Positions 1,242 to 8,644 of a DNA stretch of 64,000 nt are shown one piece after another (positions within the stretch are counted from its first letter, which is position 1; each line of letters begins with the position of its first letter). The DNA is from an uncultured Planctomycetaceae bacterium (GTDB taxonomy: Bacteria; Planctomycetota; Planctomycetia; Pirellulales; Thermoguttaceae), in the NCBI GenBank assembly GCA_963760935.1, contig CAVXFB010000002.1:54716-118715 (forward strand), written 5' to 3'. The position numbers were made by a program, and so were the translations under genes. A model generated the notes under the pieces. The model saw nothing but the letters and a program-made list of their open reading frames with translations, was not told where the DNA came from and did no database searches.

Positions 1242-3758
1242 ATGACGACCGCTTCGGGCGCAGCACTCTTGGCTCTTAGGCGTGGACGGATGCGCCAACC
1301 AACAATCACAAAGATCGGACCAAACGTACACGTCTACGCCGGCCTGTTCGTCGTCAGCTTTTCGGCCCTCGCGCTCGAAGTGGCGTTGGTGCGGCTGTTG
1401 AGCGTCACGACGTGGTACCACTTGGCGTTCTTCGCCATCTCGACAGCCATGCTGGGAGGCACAGCAGGGGCGATCAGGGTCTACCTTCGCCCGGGCGCGT
1501 TCCCTCGCGACAGTCTGGACAAAGTCGTCAGCGTATATTGCGTCTACTTGGCATTGAGCATTCCGGCGACGCTCGTGATGCTCTGTCTCATCCCGTTGTC
1601 GCTCGACAAGACCATCATGAGTCTATTGGCGATGCTAGCCACGACGGTCGCCTGCGCGTTTCCCTATTATTTCGTCGGCACGGTCGTTTCCGCAACCTTA
1701 ACCAGGTCCGACCTGCCAATTGGCAGGCTCTATGCGAGTGACTTGATCGGGGCGTCGCTGGGCTGTCTGTTCGTCTTGGGGGCGCTTGAGTTTCTGGACG
1801 TTCCCAGCCTGATTCTTCTATGCAGTTGCACGGCCGCCTTGGCTGCTTTGATCTTTGCAATGCGAACCACGTGGAGGCGCCGCCTGTTACTGGCCGGCCT
1901 TTCCGCAGCAATGCTGGCCGGGACGATTCTCAACTCGCTCAGCCTCAAGGCAATCAGACCCCTGGTTCTCAAGGGCACCGTCATCGAACCGGCCTTCCGC
2001 TACGCGATCGACCGCTGGAATTCGTATTCCCGCGTGACCGTCTATCCGTCCGTGTGGTGCGCACCGCAATACTGGGGCCCTAGCCCTTGGGCGCCGTTGG
2101 ATCCGGTGAACCAGCGCGTAATGACCATTGACGGCGGCGCGGCGACTGTGATGCGGAGATTCGCCGGCTACGGCGACATCGAACATCTGCGTTACGATGT
2201 GACGAACTTCGCCTATCATCTGGGCAGAAAAGGCGAAGCATGCATCATCGGTGTCGGCGGCGGCCGCGACATTCAGAGCGCGCTGCTCTTCAGACAGCAG
2301 CACGTCACCGGCGTCGAGATCAATCCCATCTTCATCGATCTCCTGGAACATGAATTCCGCGACTTTGCAGGACTGGCCGGCCGCCCCGATGTCACTCTCG
2401 TGACGGCCGAAGCGCGACGGTATTTGTCCCGCGATCCTAAGAAGTACGCCGTGATTCAAATGTCCCTGACCGACACCTGGGCGTCCACGGGCGCCGGGGC
2501 CTTCTCCTTGTCCGAAAACTCGCTCTATACCGTTGAAGCATGGAGCGTCTTCTTCGATCGGCTGGCCGACGACGGGATCTTCACCGTTTCGAGGTGGCAC
2601 AACCCCGAAATGCTGGGCGAAACGGGGCGCCTGGTGGCGCTGGCCTGCGGCGCGTTGCTGCGACAGGGAATCCAAGACCCATCCAAACACTTGGCGCTAG
2701 TCAGCACCGAGAACCTCGCGACCTTGCTTGTAAGCCGGCGGCCCTTCACCCAAAGTGATGTCGATAAGATTCGGAGCATCTGCCGGCAATATGGCTTCCG
2801 CCCCGTGTTAATCCCGGGACAACAACCGACCATAGCCCTGCTCCAACGAATTGTGTCTGCCCGAACGTACGACGATTTGTTGGCGGCAACCAGCGGCGGA
2901 GAGTACGATTGCAGTCCGACGACGGATGAAAACCCCTACTTCTTCAACATGCTCCGCCTTGGCCACCTTTCGGCGGCATTCGCGGGCATTGGCGGCACCG
3001 GTGTCCTCAACGGCAATCTGATCGCCACGCTGACGCTCATCGCGCTTTTGGCGATGCTCCTGCTAACCGTGTTTGCGGCAATCGTCGTTCCCCTGTTGCT
3101 CCGAGAGCGCTACGAGACGGACGTCGCCGGTGTTGCCGGCAATCCGTGGTGGGGCGCAATCTATTTTTCGTTGATCGGCGGGGGCTTTATGCTGGTCGAG
3201 ATCGCCTTGATCCAGAGACTCACCGTGCTGTTGAGCCACCCAACCCAGGCGTTGGGAATCCTGCTGTTTACGATTATCGCCAGCACCGGGGTGGGCAGCC
3301 TTCTCAGCGGCCGCTGCTTCGTCATCCGACCGCCTTGGATCTACGTCTATCCGCTGGCGATGGCAGCCCTGATTGTCAGTGTGCGCTTTGTGCTCGGCCT
3401 GTTGCTGCGCGAGATGATCGCCGCCAGCCTGCTGTGGACGATTGCCGCCTCGGTCGCCGTCATCTTTCCTCTCGGACTCCTGATGGGCATGTTCTTTCCG
3501 TCCGGCATGCGGCTGGCACAAGCCGTATGCCCCTTGCATACGCCCTGGTACTGGGCGCTCAACGGCATCTTCGGCGTCCTCTGCTCGGCCGCGGCGGTGT
3601 TCATCTCCATCTATGTGAGCGTGTCGACGAACTTCTACCTCGCGGCCGGTTGTTATCTCGCCGCACTCGTGCCGCTTGCGGCGATGTGCAAGCAGGCTGG
3701 TTCGGCGGCCTCTGCGGTCCAACAATTCGAGCAAAAAGCGGGTGTTGCGAGTGGCTGA
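1242..3758 (+). CDS. fused multi-pass membrane / spermidine-synthase-like (class I methyltransferase fold) protein
   Basis: 838-aa ORF with an ATG start. Hydrophobic N- and C-terminal multi-TM blocks flank a soluble core with a GxGxG-type motif (CIIGVGGGRD) and VTGVEINPIFIDL...VIQMSLTDTW...DGIFTVSRW, as in spermidine/spermine synthase-like proteins. Confidence 0.7.
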   Translation: MTTASGAALLALRRGRMRQPTITKIGPNVHVYAGLFVVSFSALALEVALVRLLSVTTWYHLAFFAISTAMLGGTAGAIRVYLRPGAFPRDSLDKVVSVYCVYLALSIPATLVMLCLIPLSLDKTIMSLLAMLATTVACAFPYYFVGTVVSATLTRSDLPIGRLYASDLIGASLGCLFVLGALEFLDVPSLILLCSCTAALAALIFAMRTTWRRRLLLAGLSAAMLAGTILNSLSLKAIRPLVLKGTVIEPAFRYAIDRWNSYSRVTVYPSVWCAPQYWGPSPWAPLDPVNQRVMTIDGGAATVMRRFAGYGDIEHLRYDVTNFAYHLGRKGEACIIGVGGGRDIQSALLFRQQHVTGVEINPIFIDLLEHEFRDFAGLAGRPDVTLVTAEARRYLSRDPKKYAVIQMSLTDTWASTGAGAFSLSENSLYTVEAWSVFFDRLADDGIFTVSRWHNPEMLGETGRLVALACGALLRQGIQDPSKHLALVSTENLATLLVSRRPFTQSDVDKIRSICRQYGFRPVLIPGQQPTIALLQRIVSARTYDDLLAATSGGEYDCSPTTDENPYFFNMLRLGHLSAAFAGIGGTGVLNGNLIATLTLIALLAMLLLTVFAAIVVPLLLRERYETDVAGVAGNPWWGAIYFSLIGGGFMLVEIALIQRLTVLLSHPTQALGILLFTIIASTGVGSLLSGRCFVIRPPWIYVYPLAMAALIVSVRFVLGLLLREMIAASLLWTIAASVAVIFPLGLLMGMFFPSGMRLAQAVCPLHTPWYWALNGIFGVLCSAAAVFISIYVSVSTNFYLAAGCYLAALVPLAAMCKQAGSAASAVQQFEQKAGVASG

Positions 3759-5976: not shown

Positions 5977-6307
5977 ATGTGTTAATGTAGTATATATACT
6001 ACATTAACACATCGTTCCTTTCGGTCACGCAGCTTCTGTGGAATGGTATGCCTGCTTGTAAAGGACTGCGCAGAATGGTGTTAGGTCACGTGGCGGTCGC
6101 GAAGGGCAATAGAGCCGTGGTGTGATTGCGGCGTAGTATATATACTACGCCGCAATGATACCCTGCTTGCCGTCCAACCGTCGTGCGCAGTATGTATACT
6201 GCGCACGACGGTTGGACGGCAAGCAGGGACGAGCCCGATAAGCCTGCAGGGCTATGGTTGCTCAATTACGTAGTATATATACTACGTAATTGAGCAACCA
6301 TAGCCCT
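5977..6307. repeat. array of four perfect palindromes with a shared AT-rich core: P1 5977-6012, P2 6125-6156, P3 6161-6228, P4 6248-6307
   Basis: Base-by-base check. P1 is 36 bp, P2 32 bp and P4 60 bp, all perfectly self-complementary. P3 is 68 bp with only the central G.T pair mismatched. Cores are tGTAGTATATATACTACa, cGTAGTATATATACTACg, gCAGTATGTATACTGc and cGTAGTATATATACTACg. Arms outside the core are unrelated to each other. Confidence 0.9.
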
Positions 6308-6322
6308 CAAACCATTCCGCCG

Positions 6323-7219
6323 ATGATCCGATTAAAGCGAGACCTCATTTCTAAGACTCTTCGAAAAACCAAAACGAACATCTTCATGTTCGCCCAGCTT
6401 TCACCGTTGCTCCAGGAGCACGTTCACGAGTGGGCTGTCGACAACGAAACTGAGTTACCAGATGCTGAGTTGATCACGCCAGAGTCGCGCGGGGTGAACG
6501 CGTTAATAGAAGCGATCGTAAGAGCCGGCATTTTGAAGAAAGCAGTTCTGCCATTCCCTTACCGAGAAGACATACGCTATCTCTTTGGAGAGATCGATCT
6601 ACTCGACTTGGTCCAATCGCTCAGTAATGTCGGTTATTTCACGCATTTCACAGCCATAAGCCTGAACAATCTTACGGAACAGATTCCCAAAACGATCTAC
6701 TTCAACGTCGAGCAACGCACATCTGGCGGCATGGGACAGTTAAGCCAAGAGGCTCTGGATCGCGCCTTCAAGGCTAAACCTCGCCTTTCGTCGAACGTAG
6801 TGGAGTATAAAGGTACGCGAATCGTGAAGGTCAATGGCAGAAACACCAGCAGTCTCGGGGTATCCATAAAACGGCGCGCCGACGCTGGAGCATTGAGAGT
6901 AACGGACTGCGAGCGCACATTGATCGATGCCACGGTTCGACCGGCTTACAGCGGCGGAATCGCAGTCGTAGCAAGGGCGTTTGAGCTTGCCAAAGACTTC
7001 GTATCCATTAACAAGCTCACCGCCTACCTGCGGAAGCTTCGCTACGTGTATCCCTATCACCAAGCCGTGGGATTCTACTTAGAGCGAGCCGGCTATGAGG
7101 AGCCTCTGCTGAAATTGCTGGAGCAGTTTCCTATCGAGTATGACTTCTATCTGCAGCATGACATCAAGTCGCCAGTGCTCAATAAGAGGTGGCGGCTATA
7201 TGCTCCAAAGGGATTCTAA
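6323..7219 (+). CDS. AbiEi-like (type IV toxin-antitoxin antitoxin / COG5340-type transcriptional regulator) protein
   Basis: ORF 6290..7219; the first ATG is at 6323, 16 nt after palindrome P4. The C-terminal region has TDCERTLIDATVRPAYSGGIAVVARAFELAKD...LRYVYPYHQAVGFYLERAG, resembling the conserved AbiEi C-terminal domain (ERTLLD...GG...; QR.GYLLE). Called from remembered motifs only. Region is AT-richer by eye. Confidence 0.55.
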   Translation: MIRLKRDLISKTLRKTKTNIFMFAQLSPLLQEHVHEWAVDNETELPDAELITPESRGVNALIEAIVRAGILKKAVLPFPYREDIRYLFGEIDLLDLVQSLSNVGYFTHFTAISLNNLTEQIPKTIYFNVEQRTSGGMGQLSQEALDRAFKAKPRLSSNVVEYKGTRIVKVNGRNTSSLGVSIKRRADAGALRVTDCERTLIDATVRPAYSGGIAVVARAFELAKDFVSINKLTAYLRKLRYVYPYHQAVGFYLERAGYEEPLLKLLEQFPIEYDFYLQHDIKSPVLNKRWRLYAPKGF

Positions 7220-8065
7220 CATCCCGCATCTTTCCACCACGTAGTTGTAGTAGAAGTCGAACTCCTGGAGTTCAAAGTCAGGGCGAACCGTTGGCGCGAT
7301 CGAAACAAAATCCGGCCGATGAAACTCTCTCGTTGCCTCATCGCTGATCTTGGCAAGAAGTGTGACGTCAACACGTTTTGCTTGAAATACTTTTCGTACG
7401 GTCTGATGGAAACTACTATTTGCGAAGTCCACATTGACGTAGGTTGAAACCGTGTGAATATCGAAAAAGTCCCTTCCTCGCGGAGTCGCATGTTTCTTCA
7501 ATTGCTTTGAATATTCCGGCATTTGCTGGCAAACCGCCCGGAGTTTTTCGGCAACGAACATCTGCGGCGAGTAGGCAAACACCGTAAACCCATCAACCAG
7601 TTCACTCACTCGTTCGTCAAGGTACTCGTGTTTGCTTATATCGATCGGAAACTTCTTGCCGTTGTGGCCGATCACCGTCATGGCGGCCATATGCCGTTTC
7701 CGTTGATCCGTGGTTTGTATTCTATAGGTCTCACTATCAACAATCTTGAATGCAACCTTGTAGCCACCCCAAAAACTGCGGCACTCCTCCGTAAGATTTC
7801 GCGGTTCTTCGACGAGTGTTACGTCAAATACCACGTAGCCCTTCTGTTCGAACCAATGGAAGAGAGCTCTTTCGATCAATCTTCTGAATGTCTCTGCATT
7901 CTCGACATCTCCGCAAATCGAAAGATCAATATCCTGTGATGGGCGCGTGGAGATGCCGTAAACAACATCAAGAAGATTACCGCCCTTAAGCACCAATCGT
8001 TGCATCAGGGAGTTATCGGCAAACAGAGCAAGGATAACCTCGCGTTTTAGATCGCTAATGGTCAT
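7196..8065 (-). CDS. nucleotidyltransferase AbiEii/AbiGii toxin family protein (DUF1814)
   Basis: 289-aa ORF with LKGGNLLDVVYG...RPSQDIDLS (the nucleotidyltransferase G-x-S/D.D motif context typical of DUF1814) and a downstream FAEKLRA motif. Convergent with, and overlapping by 24 nt, the AbiEi-like ORF. Confidence 0.8.
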   Translation of the reverse strand: MTISDLKREVILALFADNSLMQRLVLKGGNLLDVVYGISTRPSQDIDLSICGDVENAETFRRLIERALFHWFEQKGYVVFDVTLVEEPRNLTEECRSFWGGYKVAFKIVDSETYRIQTTDQRKRHMAAMTVIGHNGKKFPIDISKHEYLDERVSELVDGFTVFAYSPQMFVAEKLRAVCQQMPEYSKQLKKHATPRGRDFFDIHTVSTYVNVDFANSSFHQTVRKVFQAKRVDVTLLAKISDEATREFHRPDFVSIAPTVRPDFELQEFDFYYNYVVERCGMLESLWSI

Positions 8066-8396
8066 ACCACGTCACGGACGCCGAGGTCCAAGCCCTTGTG
8101 CGTCTCGAACTTGCAATCTGATGGCGCCGTGAGCCACGATTCAATGGAATGAAGCTCAAACACTGGGTGAAAACCCAAGGCTAGTGATTGTTTTGCCAAG
8201 CACTGGTCTTTTCAAGACGTCGCCAAGCCGCCGAAACACCTTCCCAATCGGCAACGCTAAATACAACGCTGTAGGCAACGCCGCACACGTCGCCCCATAG
8301 TCTCCCATGATTTCCTATGAACTCTGAAGCCATCACGACGTGCTACCTTAGGAATGCATATACGAGAATAGGCGGGCTAGCGCCCACCTATTCATG

Positions 8397-8469
8397 TGGA
8401 GCGGAGGAGGGTCGAACTCCCGACCTCTGCATTGCGAACGCAGCGCTCTCCCAACTGAGCTACCGCCCC
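8397..8469 (-). tRNA. tRNA-Ala (anticodon CGC)
   Basis: The reverse complement GGGGCGGTAGCTCAGTTGGGAGAGCGCTGCGTTCGCAATGCAGAGGTCGGGAGTTCGACCCTCCTCCGCTCCA folds as a cloverleaf. G3:U70 Ala identity pair present; anticodon loop TTCGCAA. CCA is not encoded. Confidence 0.95.
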
Positions 8470-8644
8470 AGCTTGGTTTCCATTCTACGAACTTGCCGAA
8501 CGGTTAGCAACGGCTCCTGGCGCGAAGGGCAAAGGGGTGCAAGTTGTACATTTCAGGGGCGCTTACGCCTCTTCTCTGCCGACGGCGGCATCAGTCCGGG
8601 CCGTGTACGCCGCATCCGGAGCACATGGTCCGTGGCGAATGGTC

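Follow-up and report, generated by a model that had tools for sequence, protein, structure and literature searches.

Four long palindromes (P1 to P4) are found directly upstream of an abiEi-like antitoxin gene in a stretch of 64,000 nt from an uncultured Planctomycetaceae bacterium (contig CAVXFB010000002.1, positions 54,716 to 118,715), which is referred to here as the window and whose own numbering is used throughout. These palindromes are shown here to be a conserved part of the mobile cassette of a distinct, convergent AbiE subfamily, and the array that they form is most likely a variant of the AbiEi inverted-repeat operator. We favour, with a probability of about 0.55, the reading that P1-P4 form an autoregulatory operator/promoter array belonging to a mobile anti-phage toxin-antitoxin cassette of the AbiE type (COG5340 AbiEi plus DUF1814 AbiEii). 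Three of its properties are undescribed: a dyad centre that is conserved while the arms, though perfectly symmetric, are free in sequence, the presence of several dispersed sites, and the convergent orientation of the toxin gene. It is also new that orthologous arms evolve by paired compensatory changes, that most of the tolerated asymmetry falls on the two central bases, and that strand-biased G.T wobble is absent.

All four palindromes were confirmed at the coordinates, and with the lengths and perfect pairing, that had been claimed in an earlier interpretation made from the letters of the window alone (the sequence-only reading). They measure 36, 32, 68 and 60 bp and occupy 5977-6307, P1, P2 and P4 being fully perfect (Table 1), and the common core at the axis of these three, as well as the deviating core of P3 with its central G,T, were confirmed. 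When up to three mismatches are allowed, the core 16-mer occurs in the 64 kb only at P1-P4, with 0 matches in 100 shuffles, and no other hairpin-type inverted repeat in the whole window is as long as any of the four. Folded as single-stranded DNA, the segment 5960-6325 reaches -129.5 kcal/mol, as compared with -51.4 ± 4.2 kcal/mol in shuffles (z = -18.7). The start codon of abiEi (ATG at 6323) lies 16 nt past the end of P4. One detail of the earlier interpretation is not confirmed, namely the decayed copy of the P3 arm that the P1-P2 spacer (around 6051-6077) was said to carry: its local alignment score is reached by 123 of 2000 shuffles and is not significant.

The distribution of the core was studied in one genome per species, a scan that returned at least 119 loci and in which the copy numbers per genome are lower bounds. 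Among the matches listed, the exact core is present in many Planctomycetota and also in Zixibacteria, Ignavibacteria, Nitrospirota, Leptospiraceae, Anaerolineae and others, and clusters of 2-4 cores placed 50-300 bp apart are common in these genome loci. The motif was searched for together with its neighbouring genes, as the sequence-only reading had suggested, and abiEi and abiEii proved to be its conserved neighbours: clustering of the open reading frames (ORFs) around the loci yielded two conserved partners only, AbiEi-like and AbiEii. The first is a gene of ~290-310 aa whose start faces the array, the second is a gene of ~290 aa convergent with it, and both share 35-89% identity with the copies of the window. 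A gene of the AbiEi subfamily starts beside the array in 62 of the 80 hairpin-type genome loci among the matches listed; of the 18 without AbiEi, 7 have the motif within 700 nt of the end of the locus. With tblastn and a profile hidden Markov model, the subfamily was detected neither in 50 viral loci nor in the non-AbiE genome loci.

A second sample was independent of the core and consisted of 80 metagenome loci, not de-duplicated, which were retrieved with two peptide motifs conserved in the C-terminal part of the protein. A palindrome with a GTATATATAC-like centre is found within ~400 bp upstream of the gene in 51 of the 55 loci whose upstream sequence reaches at least 350 bp, 38 of the 55 have two or more of them, and about 20 of these palindromes have very long arms. 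As selection by protein motif removes the circularity of a core-based search, the array is to be regarded as a near-universal part of the abiEi 5′ region. Long arms like those of the window recur in the family. The sequence-only reading was therefore right in tying the palindromes to the AbiEi-like gene, and the counts in both samples make the link much stronger than could be known from the letters alone. Two 16-mers of the same composition as the core, used as controls, gave 37 matches and a single hairpin, which adjoins another AbiEi gene of the subfamily; since it precedes a subfamily abiEi, this lone hairpin represents a third core type and not noise. The core sequence AGTATATATACT was not found in any paper of the library searched. 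Separately, in the Hydrogenedentota metagenome-assembled genome (MAG) JAJRTN01, one core-bearing sequence of ~66 nt, with 3 extra pairs, is located at the ends of eight contigs (loci L090, L099, L110, L136, L137, L146, L188 and L199), which suggests that it is the terminus of a multi-copy insertion element carrying or using the motif.

The product of the abiEi-like gene has the same length as its database homologues (298 aa), of which 534 were found, some of them named "predicted transcriptional regulator of viral defense system". It gave no match in Pfam or NCBIfam, and a profile search against PDB sequences was also negative, so that the protein could be placed only by its fold. The AlphaFold2 model (pLDDT 92.8), for which 26 family members were used, had as its top Foldseek matches the S. 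agalactiae AbiEi (6Y8Q) and the M. tuberculosis protein Rv2827c (1ZEL), each with a probability of 1.00; the latter ranks second, yet it has the highest TM-score (~0.6). PADLOC and Foldseek thus agree in identifying the protein as the AbiEi of an AbiE type IV toxin-antitoxin system (COG5340 AbiEi plus DUF1814 AbiEii). Each of the two structural matches is a winged-helix antitoxin that is monomeric and represses its own promoter by binding long inverted repeats (PMC3985639, PMC7319586), and inverted-repeat arrays before abiEi are consequently the known type of operator for this protein family.

The adjacent gene expected of an AbiE system, coding for a DUF1814 nucleotidyltransferase toxin, is present in the window and is paired with abiEi in ~50 related loci. 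By contrast with the antitoxin-first, same-strand bicistronic operon of AbiE (PMC3985639), the two genes are convergent here and in 49-51 relatives. Their 3′ ends overlap by 24 nt in the window, and a convergent overlap of ~24 nt recurs in those relatives (including L118, L119, L143, L150, L208 and L210). As this arrangement is kept across the subfamily, transcription of abiEi would run antisense into the toxin gene. The GC content is 0.49-0.52 across 6-8 kb, where the cassette lies, versus ~0.58-0.64 in its surroundings. With the nearest relative, locus L151 of an uncultured Planctomycetaceae MAG, nucleotide homology (76% identity) is limited to the segment that begins at the P4 core and stops where abiEii ends, and the flanking genes of close relatives are unrelated (a major facilitator superfamily (MFS) transporter, a beta-helix protein, redoxins, transposase fragments). 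Unrelated flanks and homology confined to the cassette indicate a mobile unit that brings its array along. The tRNA gene that follows the cassette in the window is ~3.9 kb further off in L151 and is therefore a neighbour, not a part of the cassette.

Table 1. Palindromes, cassette genes and neighbouring features in the window
Feature	Position	Strand	Description
P1, gene-distal	5977-6012	no strand	36 bp; core GTAGTATATATACTAC at 5987-6002 plus 10 perfect pairs each side
P2	6125-6156	no strand	32 bp; core at 6133-6148 plus 8-bp perfect arms
P3	6161-6228	no strand	68 bp; 33-nt arms, 100% complementary; central G,T unpaired; core variant GCAGTATGTATACTGC at 6187-6202
P4, gene-proximal	6248-6307	no strand	60-bp perfect palindrome; core at 6270-6285 plus 22-bp arms
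abiEi-like gene	6323-7219	+	298 aa; winged-helix N-terminal domain plus AbiEi C-terminal domain; PADLOC AbiEi E = 3e-18
abiEii	7196-8065	-	DUF1814 nucleotidyltransferase toxin, 289 aa; Pfam PF08843 E = 2.8e-23; PADLOC AbiEii
TPR-repeat gene	ends 5934		upstream of the array
838-aa ORF	1242-3758	+	upstream of the TPR gene; without Pfam or NCBIfam match
tRNA-Ala(CGC)	8396-8469	-	~330 nt upstream of abiEii, on the same strand as abiEii

Two further readings can be judged from these data. According to the first, to which we give almost no credence, the palindromes would be artefacts of assembly or fold-back, plain intrinsic terminators, or members of a genome-wide family of repetitive extragenic palindromes (REPs) or miniature inverted-repeat transposable elements. 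A consensus scan did flag P1, and only P1, as terminator-like, and one contig (L100, 1-120) opens with a perfect palindrome of at least 120 bp that is centred on the core and reaches the contig start; it is either a family member of extreme size or the product of a fold-back in the assembly. However, the layout recurs in more than 100 independent assemblies of different projects, with orthologous positions kept, and the palindromes are not dispersed within the window. Furthermore, the 10 nt that follow 150 hairpins contain a mean of 2.4 T, with six or more in only 3 cases; there is no T-tract enrichment, and the combination of a GC-rich stem and a U-tract that marks intrinsic terminators was not found. 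An assembly artefact and a genome-wide REP family were outcomes that the sequence-only reading had itself considered, and neither is what the comparisons reveal. A REP/RAYT family was tried as a candidate and rejected: such a family would comprise many dispersed and nearly identical copies per genome, their GTAG lying at the 5′ end and outside the stem, whereas the 64 kb contain four copies that are confined to one intergenic region and differ in their arms.

According to the second, the sites would be substrates of enzymes acting on DNA hairpins, that is, replicated hairpin telomeres (protelomerase/ResT), HUH/RAYT sites or transposon footprints, and the chance of this seems to us exceedingly remote. 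It is true that these are perfect palindromes with a conserved axis, that the cassette is found in differing genomic contexts, and that the GTAG/CTAC tetranucleotides recall the GTAG-tagged REPs (PMC3733652). Nevertheless, the sites are internal, form arrays of 2-4 and are always before abiEi, the conserved neighbours in the at least 119 loci include no protelomerase, HUH protein or transposase, GTAG is inside the stem next to the apex and not outside as in REPs, and the four copies in 64 kb share one intergenic region. The resemblance to hairpin telomeres that had been pointed out in the sequence-only reading is not supported either, as only abiEi and abiEii are conserved beside ~60 loci. A hairpin telomere would be a single site accompanied by a resolvase gene on a linear replicon, whereas we observe internal arrays on contigs of up to megabases. 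This whole reading has already been largely refuted.

The most striking property of the array is the contrast between its centre and its arms, which have essentially no consensus beyond 1-3 flanking bases and yet are perfectly paired. Among the matches listed, 103 of 171 cores have 6-9 extra perfect pairs beyond the 16-mer and few have fewer, with a tail that reaches 21 pairs and one core, at a contig end, that reaches 52. Symmetry is also maintained within the core, since 30 of the 34 cores with two mismatches are altered at mirrored, complementary positions, and symmetric variants such as GCAG..CTGC, GAAG..CTTC, GTGG..CCAC, CTAG..CTAG and ..TATGCATA.. are found; of the 8 asymmetric cores, which have a single mismatch, 5 are altered at the central two bases, as in P3 of the window. 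Only GTATATATAC is common to all core types. One of these, GGTATTATATATAATACC, accompanies a two-residue insertion in the wing of the protein, and two others, GATGTATATATACATC and GTTGTATATATACAAC, are on a 55-kb viral (prophage-like) contig that bears the cassette. These other core types were seen in sister clades (L240, L241, L246, L247, L254, L257 at ~330 nt upstream, L392 at 2773-2880, and L059).

The comparison of orthologous loci shows how the arms evolve. The four-site layout of the window is kept in L210, L151 and L207, while L209 lacks P1 and L208 has two sites only. The spacings between centres are also kept (P2-P3, 50-55 bp in five relatives; P3-P4, 75-93 bp), and the spacers themselves have diverged past alignment. 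P1 has orthologues at the same position in L210 and L151, with arms that differ only by paired compensatory changes, and the P2 arm is conserved with compensatory changes in L210, L151, L209 and L207. For instance, between the window and L210, a G-C pair of P1 became A-T and an A-T pair became G-C, and a C-G pair of P2 became T-A; between the window and L151, several transversion pairs are observed in the P1 and P2 arms. Beyond its 12-nt AGTATNNATACT centre, the P3 arm is 28 nt long in the window and reaches 32 nt in L151, as compared with 29 nt in L209, and these three arms have little or no sequence in common. In L210 and L207 the arm is no longer than 5-6 nt, although the spacing is the same. 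As its length varies at constant spacing, the arms grow by overwriting the flank and not by insertion. Intrastrand complementarity has thus been shown to be maintained over evolutionary time at the DNA level. The idea, put forward in the sequence-only reading, of a fixed axis with unrelated arms whose symmetry is kept while their sequence is not is borne out by these paired changes in both arms, and the asymmetric decay that would have contradicted it was not observed. Its argument that a plain dimeric-operator model fails to account for the arms is likewise supported.

It has to be considered, although we deem it rather unlikely, that the core alone is functional as an ordinary duplex operator and that the perfect arms are a mutational by-product of template switching, which the strong AT-rich core palindrome would provoke during replication and which would make any flanking sequence symmetric, with no selection for a hairpin or cruciform. 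Several of the observations above fit this explanation: arm sequences are nearly information-free beyond the 1-3 flanking bases, arm length at one orthologous site ranges from 5 to 32 nt with constant spacing, and mismatches are strand-neutral and mostly transitions, as expected of recent single changes awaiting correction. Template switching is, in addition, known to yield perfect stems and one-step compensatory changes (PMC8794818). By contrast, arm lengths peak at 6-9 bp with a sharp lower limit and are not geometrically distributed, conservation between relatives is much higher in the arms of P1 and P2 than in the spacers (10-30% of positions changed versus unalignable), and long arms recur at the same positions, P3 and P4, in the window, L151 and L209. 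These three features favour some selection. Moreover, we know of no other bacterial operators with palindromic cores that grow such arms.

The position of the array is compatible with a role as an operator. Across the family, the proximal palindrome is mostly located 20-60 nt before the start codon, and sense -35-like TTG hexamers are present 14-25 nt upstream of the core in 25 of 63 proximal sites, as compared with 13 of 63 in antisense, and with 15 and 20 of 87 in the distal sites. In the clade with the alternative core (ATTATATATAAT), a conserved TTGACA is followed by a 16-nt spacer and by TATTAT in the left half of the core, and P4 of the window contains the -10-like sequence TATACT at 6278-6283. 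As in known AbiEi operators, inverted repeats are therefore placed directly upstream and overlap promoter elements, although the latter are predicted rather than mapped. The 23-3-23 layout with a full-length consensus and a conserved outer part (PMC3985639) is not reproduced, as the halves abut and the arms have no consensus. The centre-to-centre spacings do not show significant helical phasing at 10.5 bp (p ~0.17), and a weak signal at 11.5 bp was not trusted after four periods had been tested.

Support for sequence-specific binding and repression by AbiEi is indirect and comes from the covariation between the core and the wing of the protein. The wing is the site of the few invariant or nearly invariant residues of the N-terminal domain (F78 and R81, plus P79, R85 and G89), and a two-residue insertion in it (FPxPYKRExRY) accompanies core type ATTATATATAAT in 10 of 10 loci and core type AGTATATATACT in 3 of 106.

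In the model that we propose, each palindrome would be a dyad-symmetric site bound by the winged-helix AbiEi-like protein, whose gene starts 16 nt downstream and which would read the invariant AT-rich centre GTATATATAC within GTAGTATATATACTAC. P4 would be the main operator: as it would overlap the abiEi promoter at its -10 and start region, binding there would repress abiEi, while the distal P1-P3 could supply further binding events, like the four inverted repeats of the Rv2827c promoter. The arms would not be read for their sequence, and their exact self-complementarity would be kept since intrastrand DNA pairing matters: the AT-rich perfect core may nucleate a hairpin or cruciform, hairpin-templated replication (template switching, quasipalindrome correction) would then copy one arm onto the other, and selection would retain a stem of at least ~14 bp.

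It could be argued that the relevant molecule is RNA. The palindromes would then be transcribed hairpins with a conserved apex, which could belong to a structured 5′ leader, be small RNAs, or serve AbiEii as an RNA antitoxin or decoy, and the copies found in phages (see below) would be RNA mimics comparable to pseudo-ToxI. Covariation with tolerated asymmetry at the loop centre is the behaviour of an RNA stem-loop, and the location of the array upstream of an antitoxin gene recalls type III systems, in which RNA antitoxin arrays precede toxin genes. However, the single mismatches beyond which pairing resumes in 219 distinct AbiE-linked hairpins (GT/TG 10, AC/CA 11, other 12) are enriched in the transition type and show no wobble bias for either strand. 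The lack of strand-biased G.T wobble points to intrastrand pairing at the DNA level (cruciform or template switching) and not to RNA, as strand-neutral Watson-Crick symmetry is expected of a cruciform or of replication-level copying, unlike a sense-strand RNA stem. No curated RNA family or strand-specific G.U covariation was found, and Rfam gave only sub-threshold, spurious miRNA-like hairpin matches in the window region. In addition, the -35-like elements put the start site inside the proximal palindrome, whose hairpin would thus not be transcribed whole, the distal hairpins are not framed by promoter or terminator signals, and, as described above, the bacterial hairpins have no U-tract after them. 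For these reasons we consider the RNA explanation clearly unlikely, and the double-stranded RNA hairpins that the sequence-only reading had envisaged are disfavoured for the bacterial arrays.

The situation is different in phages. The exact 16-mer was found in 50 IMG/VR viral contigs, where 23 of 51 matches extend for 5-10 perfect pairs of unrelated sequence. There is one hairpin per retrieved locus, 20-40 nt after co-directional genes without known family (among L001-L047 and beyond, for instance L047 at 8446-8481, L001 at 6236-6263, L026, L030, L037 and L048). Oriented by gene strand, the imperfections of these hairpins are GT/TG in 15 cases versus AC/CA in 2, U-tracts follow several copies, and a subset shares the consensus cuGUCYURN-apex-NYARGAUGG; this sense bias of G.U pairs speaks for the RNA explanation, and the phage copies resemble sense-strand RNA hairpins, probably terminators, with the same 16-nt apex. 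The conserved proteins encoded next to them had no matches in PHROGs and Pfam, and their role as structural genes is a guess from size and order. Rfam gave no true match in five phage loci, a cultured-phage database searched with the phage hairpin gave chance-level matches only, and no homology was detected between the neighbourhoods of phage hairpins and the non-AbiE bacterial hairpin loci. The alternative core had 101 matches in viral contigs, mostly by chance in AT-rich DNA, and the 4 hairpin-type ones, in high-GC contigs, are not accompanied by AbiE. Two further observations concern viral locus L019, which contains a different 36-bp perfect palindrome (tacagtgtatacaGTGTATACACtgtatacactgta) at ~2573-2608 and tandem partial copies of the core (315-380) beside the exact match.

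The apex shared by the presumed operator of an anti-phage cassette and a phage hairpin is the basis of a speculative reading, in which the palindromes act as extruded DNA hairpins or cruciforms, and not as plain duplex operators, and their apex copies a phage structure. Upon infection, the apex copies of the phage (as DNA or RNA) would draw AbiEi off its own array, and, as AbiEi would be needed to keep the nucleotidyltransferase toxin inactive, such titration would couple infection to the release of the toxin. We regard this sensor function as very unlikely.

Returning to the autoregulatory operator, several observations weigh against it. In the window, the -35 element upstream of P4 is weak (TGGTTG), and a generic promoter scan flagged only P1 and not P4. 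The N-terminal ~75 residues of the protein are poorly conserved, as opposed to the almost invariant DNA core, which is awkward for a protein that reads this core unless the conserved wing does so, and the covariation of wing and core may stem from a single or few evolutionary events. Unlike in canonical AbiE, the toxin gene is devoid of these sites (none upstream of it in 41 loci). A duplex operator needs no arm symmetry, so that the most striking feature is left to a second, unproven process. Finally, the presence of the same apex in phage contigs without AbiEi means that the motif can have a life beyond AbiEi autoregulation. We infer the binding of AbiEi to the centre, the promoter overlap of the proximal site and the role and mechanism of arm symmetry, and the first two stay at this level because the covariation may reflect few events and the -35 element of the window is weak.

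AbiE is among the most widespread families of toxin-antitoxin and abortive-infection systems. The present analysis defines a large cross-phylum subfamily (more than 500 homologues) with a gene order that departs from the canonical operon, together with a control-region signature that can be searched for: a GTATATATAC centre, free and perfectly symmetric arms, and 1-4 sites, mostly 2-3. If arm symmetry is selected, these would be natural operators dependent on DNA secondary structure, through which cruciform biology could be approached directly in vivo. If it is mutational, they would constitute an unusually clean natural record of template-switch "palindrome perfecting", with hundreds of independent fixed-core sites. 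The apex shared with phage hairpins, in turn, makes a link through sensing or mimicry testable; if true, this would be an operator-mimicry sensor for abortive infection.

Among the systems with which the array can be compared, protelomerase/ResT sites are also perfect palindromes, with a symmetry that arises by replication through a hairpin. They are, however, single sites on a linear replicon beside a resolvase gene, none of which applies here. REP elements are also short extragenic palindromes with GTAG (PMC3733652), but they occur as tens to hundreds of dispersed, near-identical copies with GTAG outside the stem, while here there are four in one promoter region, with GTAG inside.

Regarding the perfection of the arms, supercoil-driven extrusion of cruciforms at AT-centred palindromes takes place in the ColE1 inverted repeat and in engineered cruciform-controlled promoters. 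The array resembles these in its perfect palindromes of at least ~28 bp and its AT-rich centre with a -10-like sequence, and a cruciform needs both strands to be paired. To our knowledge, there is no natural repressor/operator system that depends on extrusion. Quasipalindrome correction, of which the hotspots of E. coli are a case, also perfects inverted repeats and fits the growth of P3 by overwriting without insertion, but it has been described for RNA genes and mutation hotspots and not as a standing feature of operators, and here its events would have to be deduced. Template switching creates and maintains perfect stems, and a single event of this kind can introduce compensatory changes, indels among them (Monttinen and Loytynoja 2022, PMC8794818).

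The closest relatives of the array are the AbiE operators themselves, which are documented as long inverted repeats spanning promoters (PMC3985639, PMC7319586), and the idea of the sequence-only reading that no related element has been described is not supported. In S. agalactiae, the AbiEi operator (Dy et al. 2014, PMC3985639) is a 23-3-23 near-palindrome (IR1/IR2) that is perfect in its outer 11 bp and covers -35, -10 and +1. As here, a long palindromic sequence precedes abiEi; in S. agalactiae it is bound by the COG5340 winged-helix antitoxin, which results in negative autoregulation, and the protein of the window has the same fold. In S. agalactiae, though, conservation and perfect symmetry are found in the outer 11 bp, with imperfect pairing further inwards, whereas in our subfamily the conserved part is the dyad centre; similarly, S. 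agalactiae has one palindrome and a co-transcribed toxin gene, as opposed to 2-4 palindromes over up to ~400 bp and a convergent toxin gene without sites. Rv2827c, for its part, binds with graded affinities to four 23-bp inverted repeats located between -1 and -131 (Beck et al. 2020, PMC7319586). Several inverted-repeat sites upstream of the antitoxin gene are thus common to both, and they overlap the promoter in the case of Rv2827c and are predicted to do so here. Unlike the Rv2827c repeats, which have a consensus along their length and halves 13 bp apart, those of the array described here have halves that abut at an AT-rich centre, share only this centre, and carry arms that are unique to each site.

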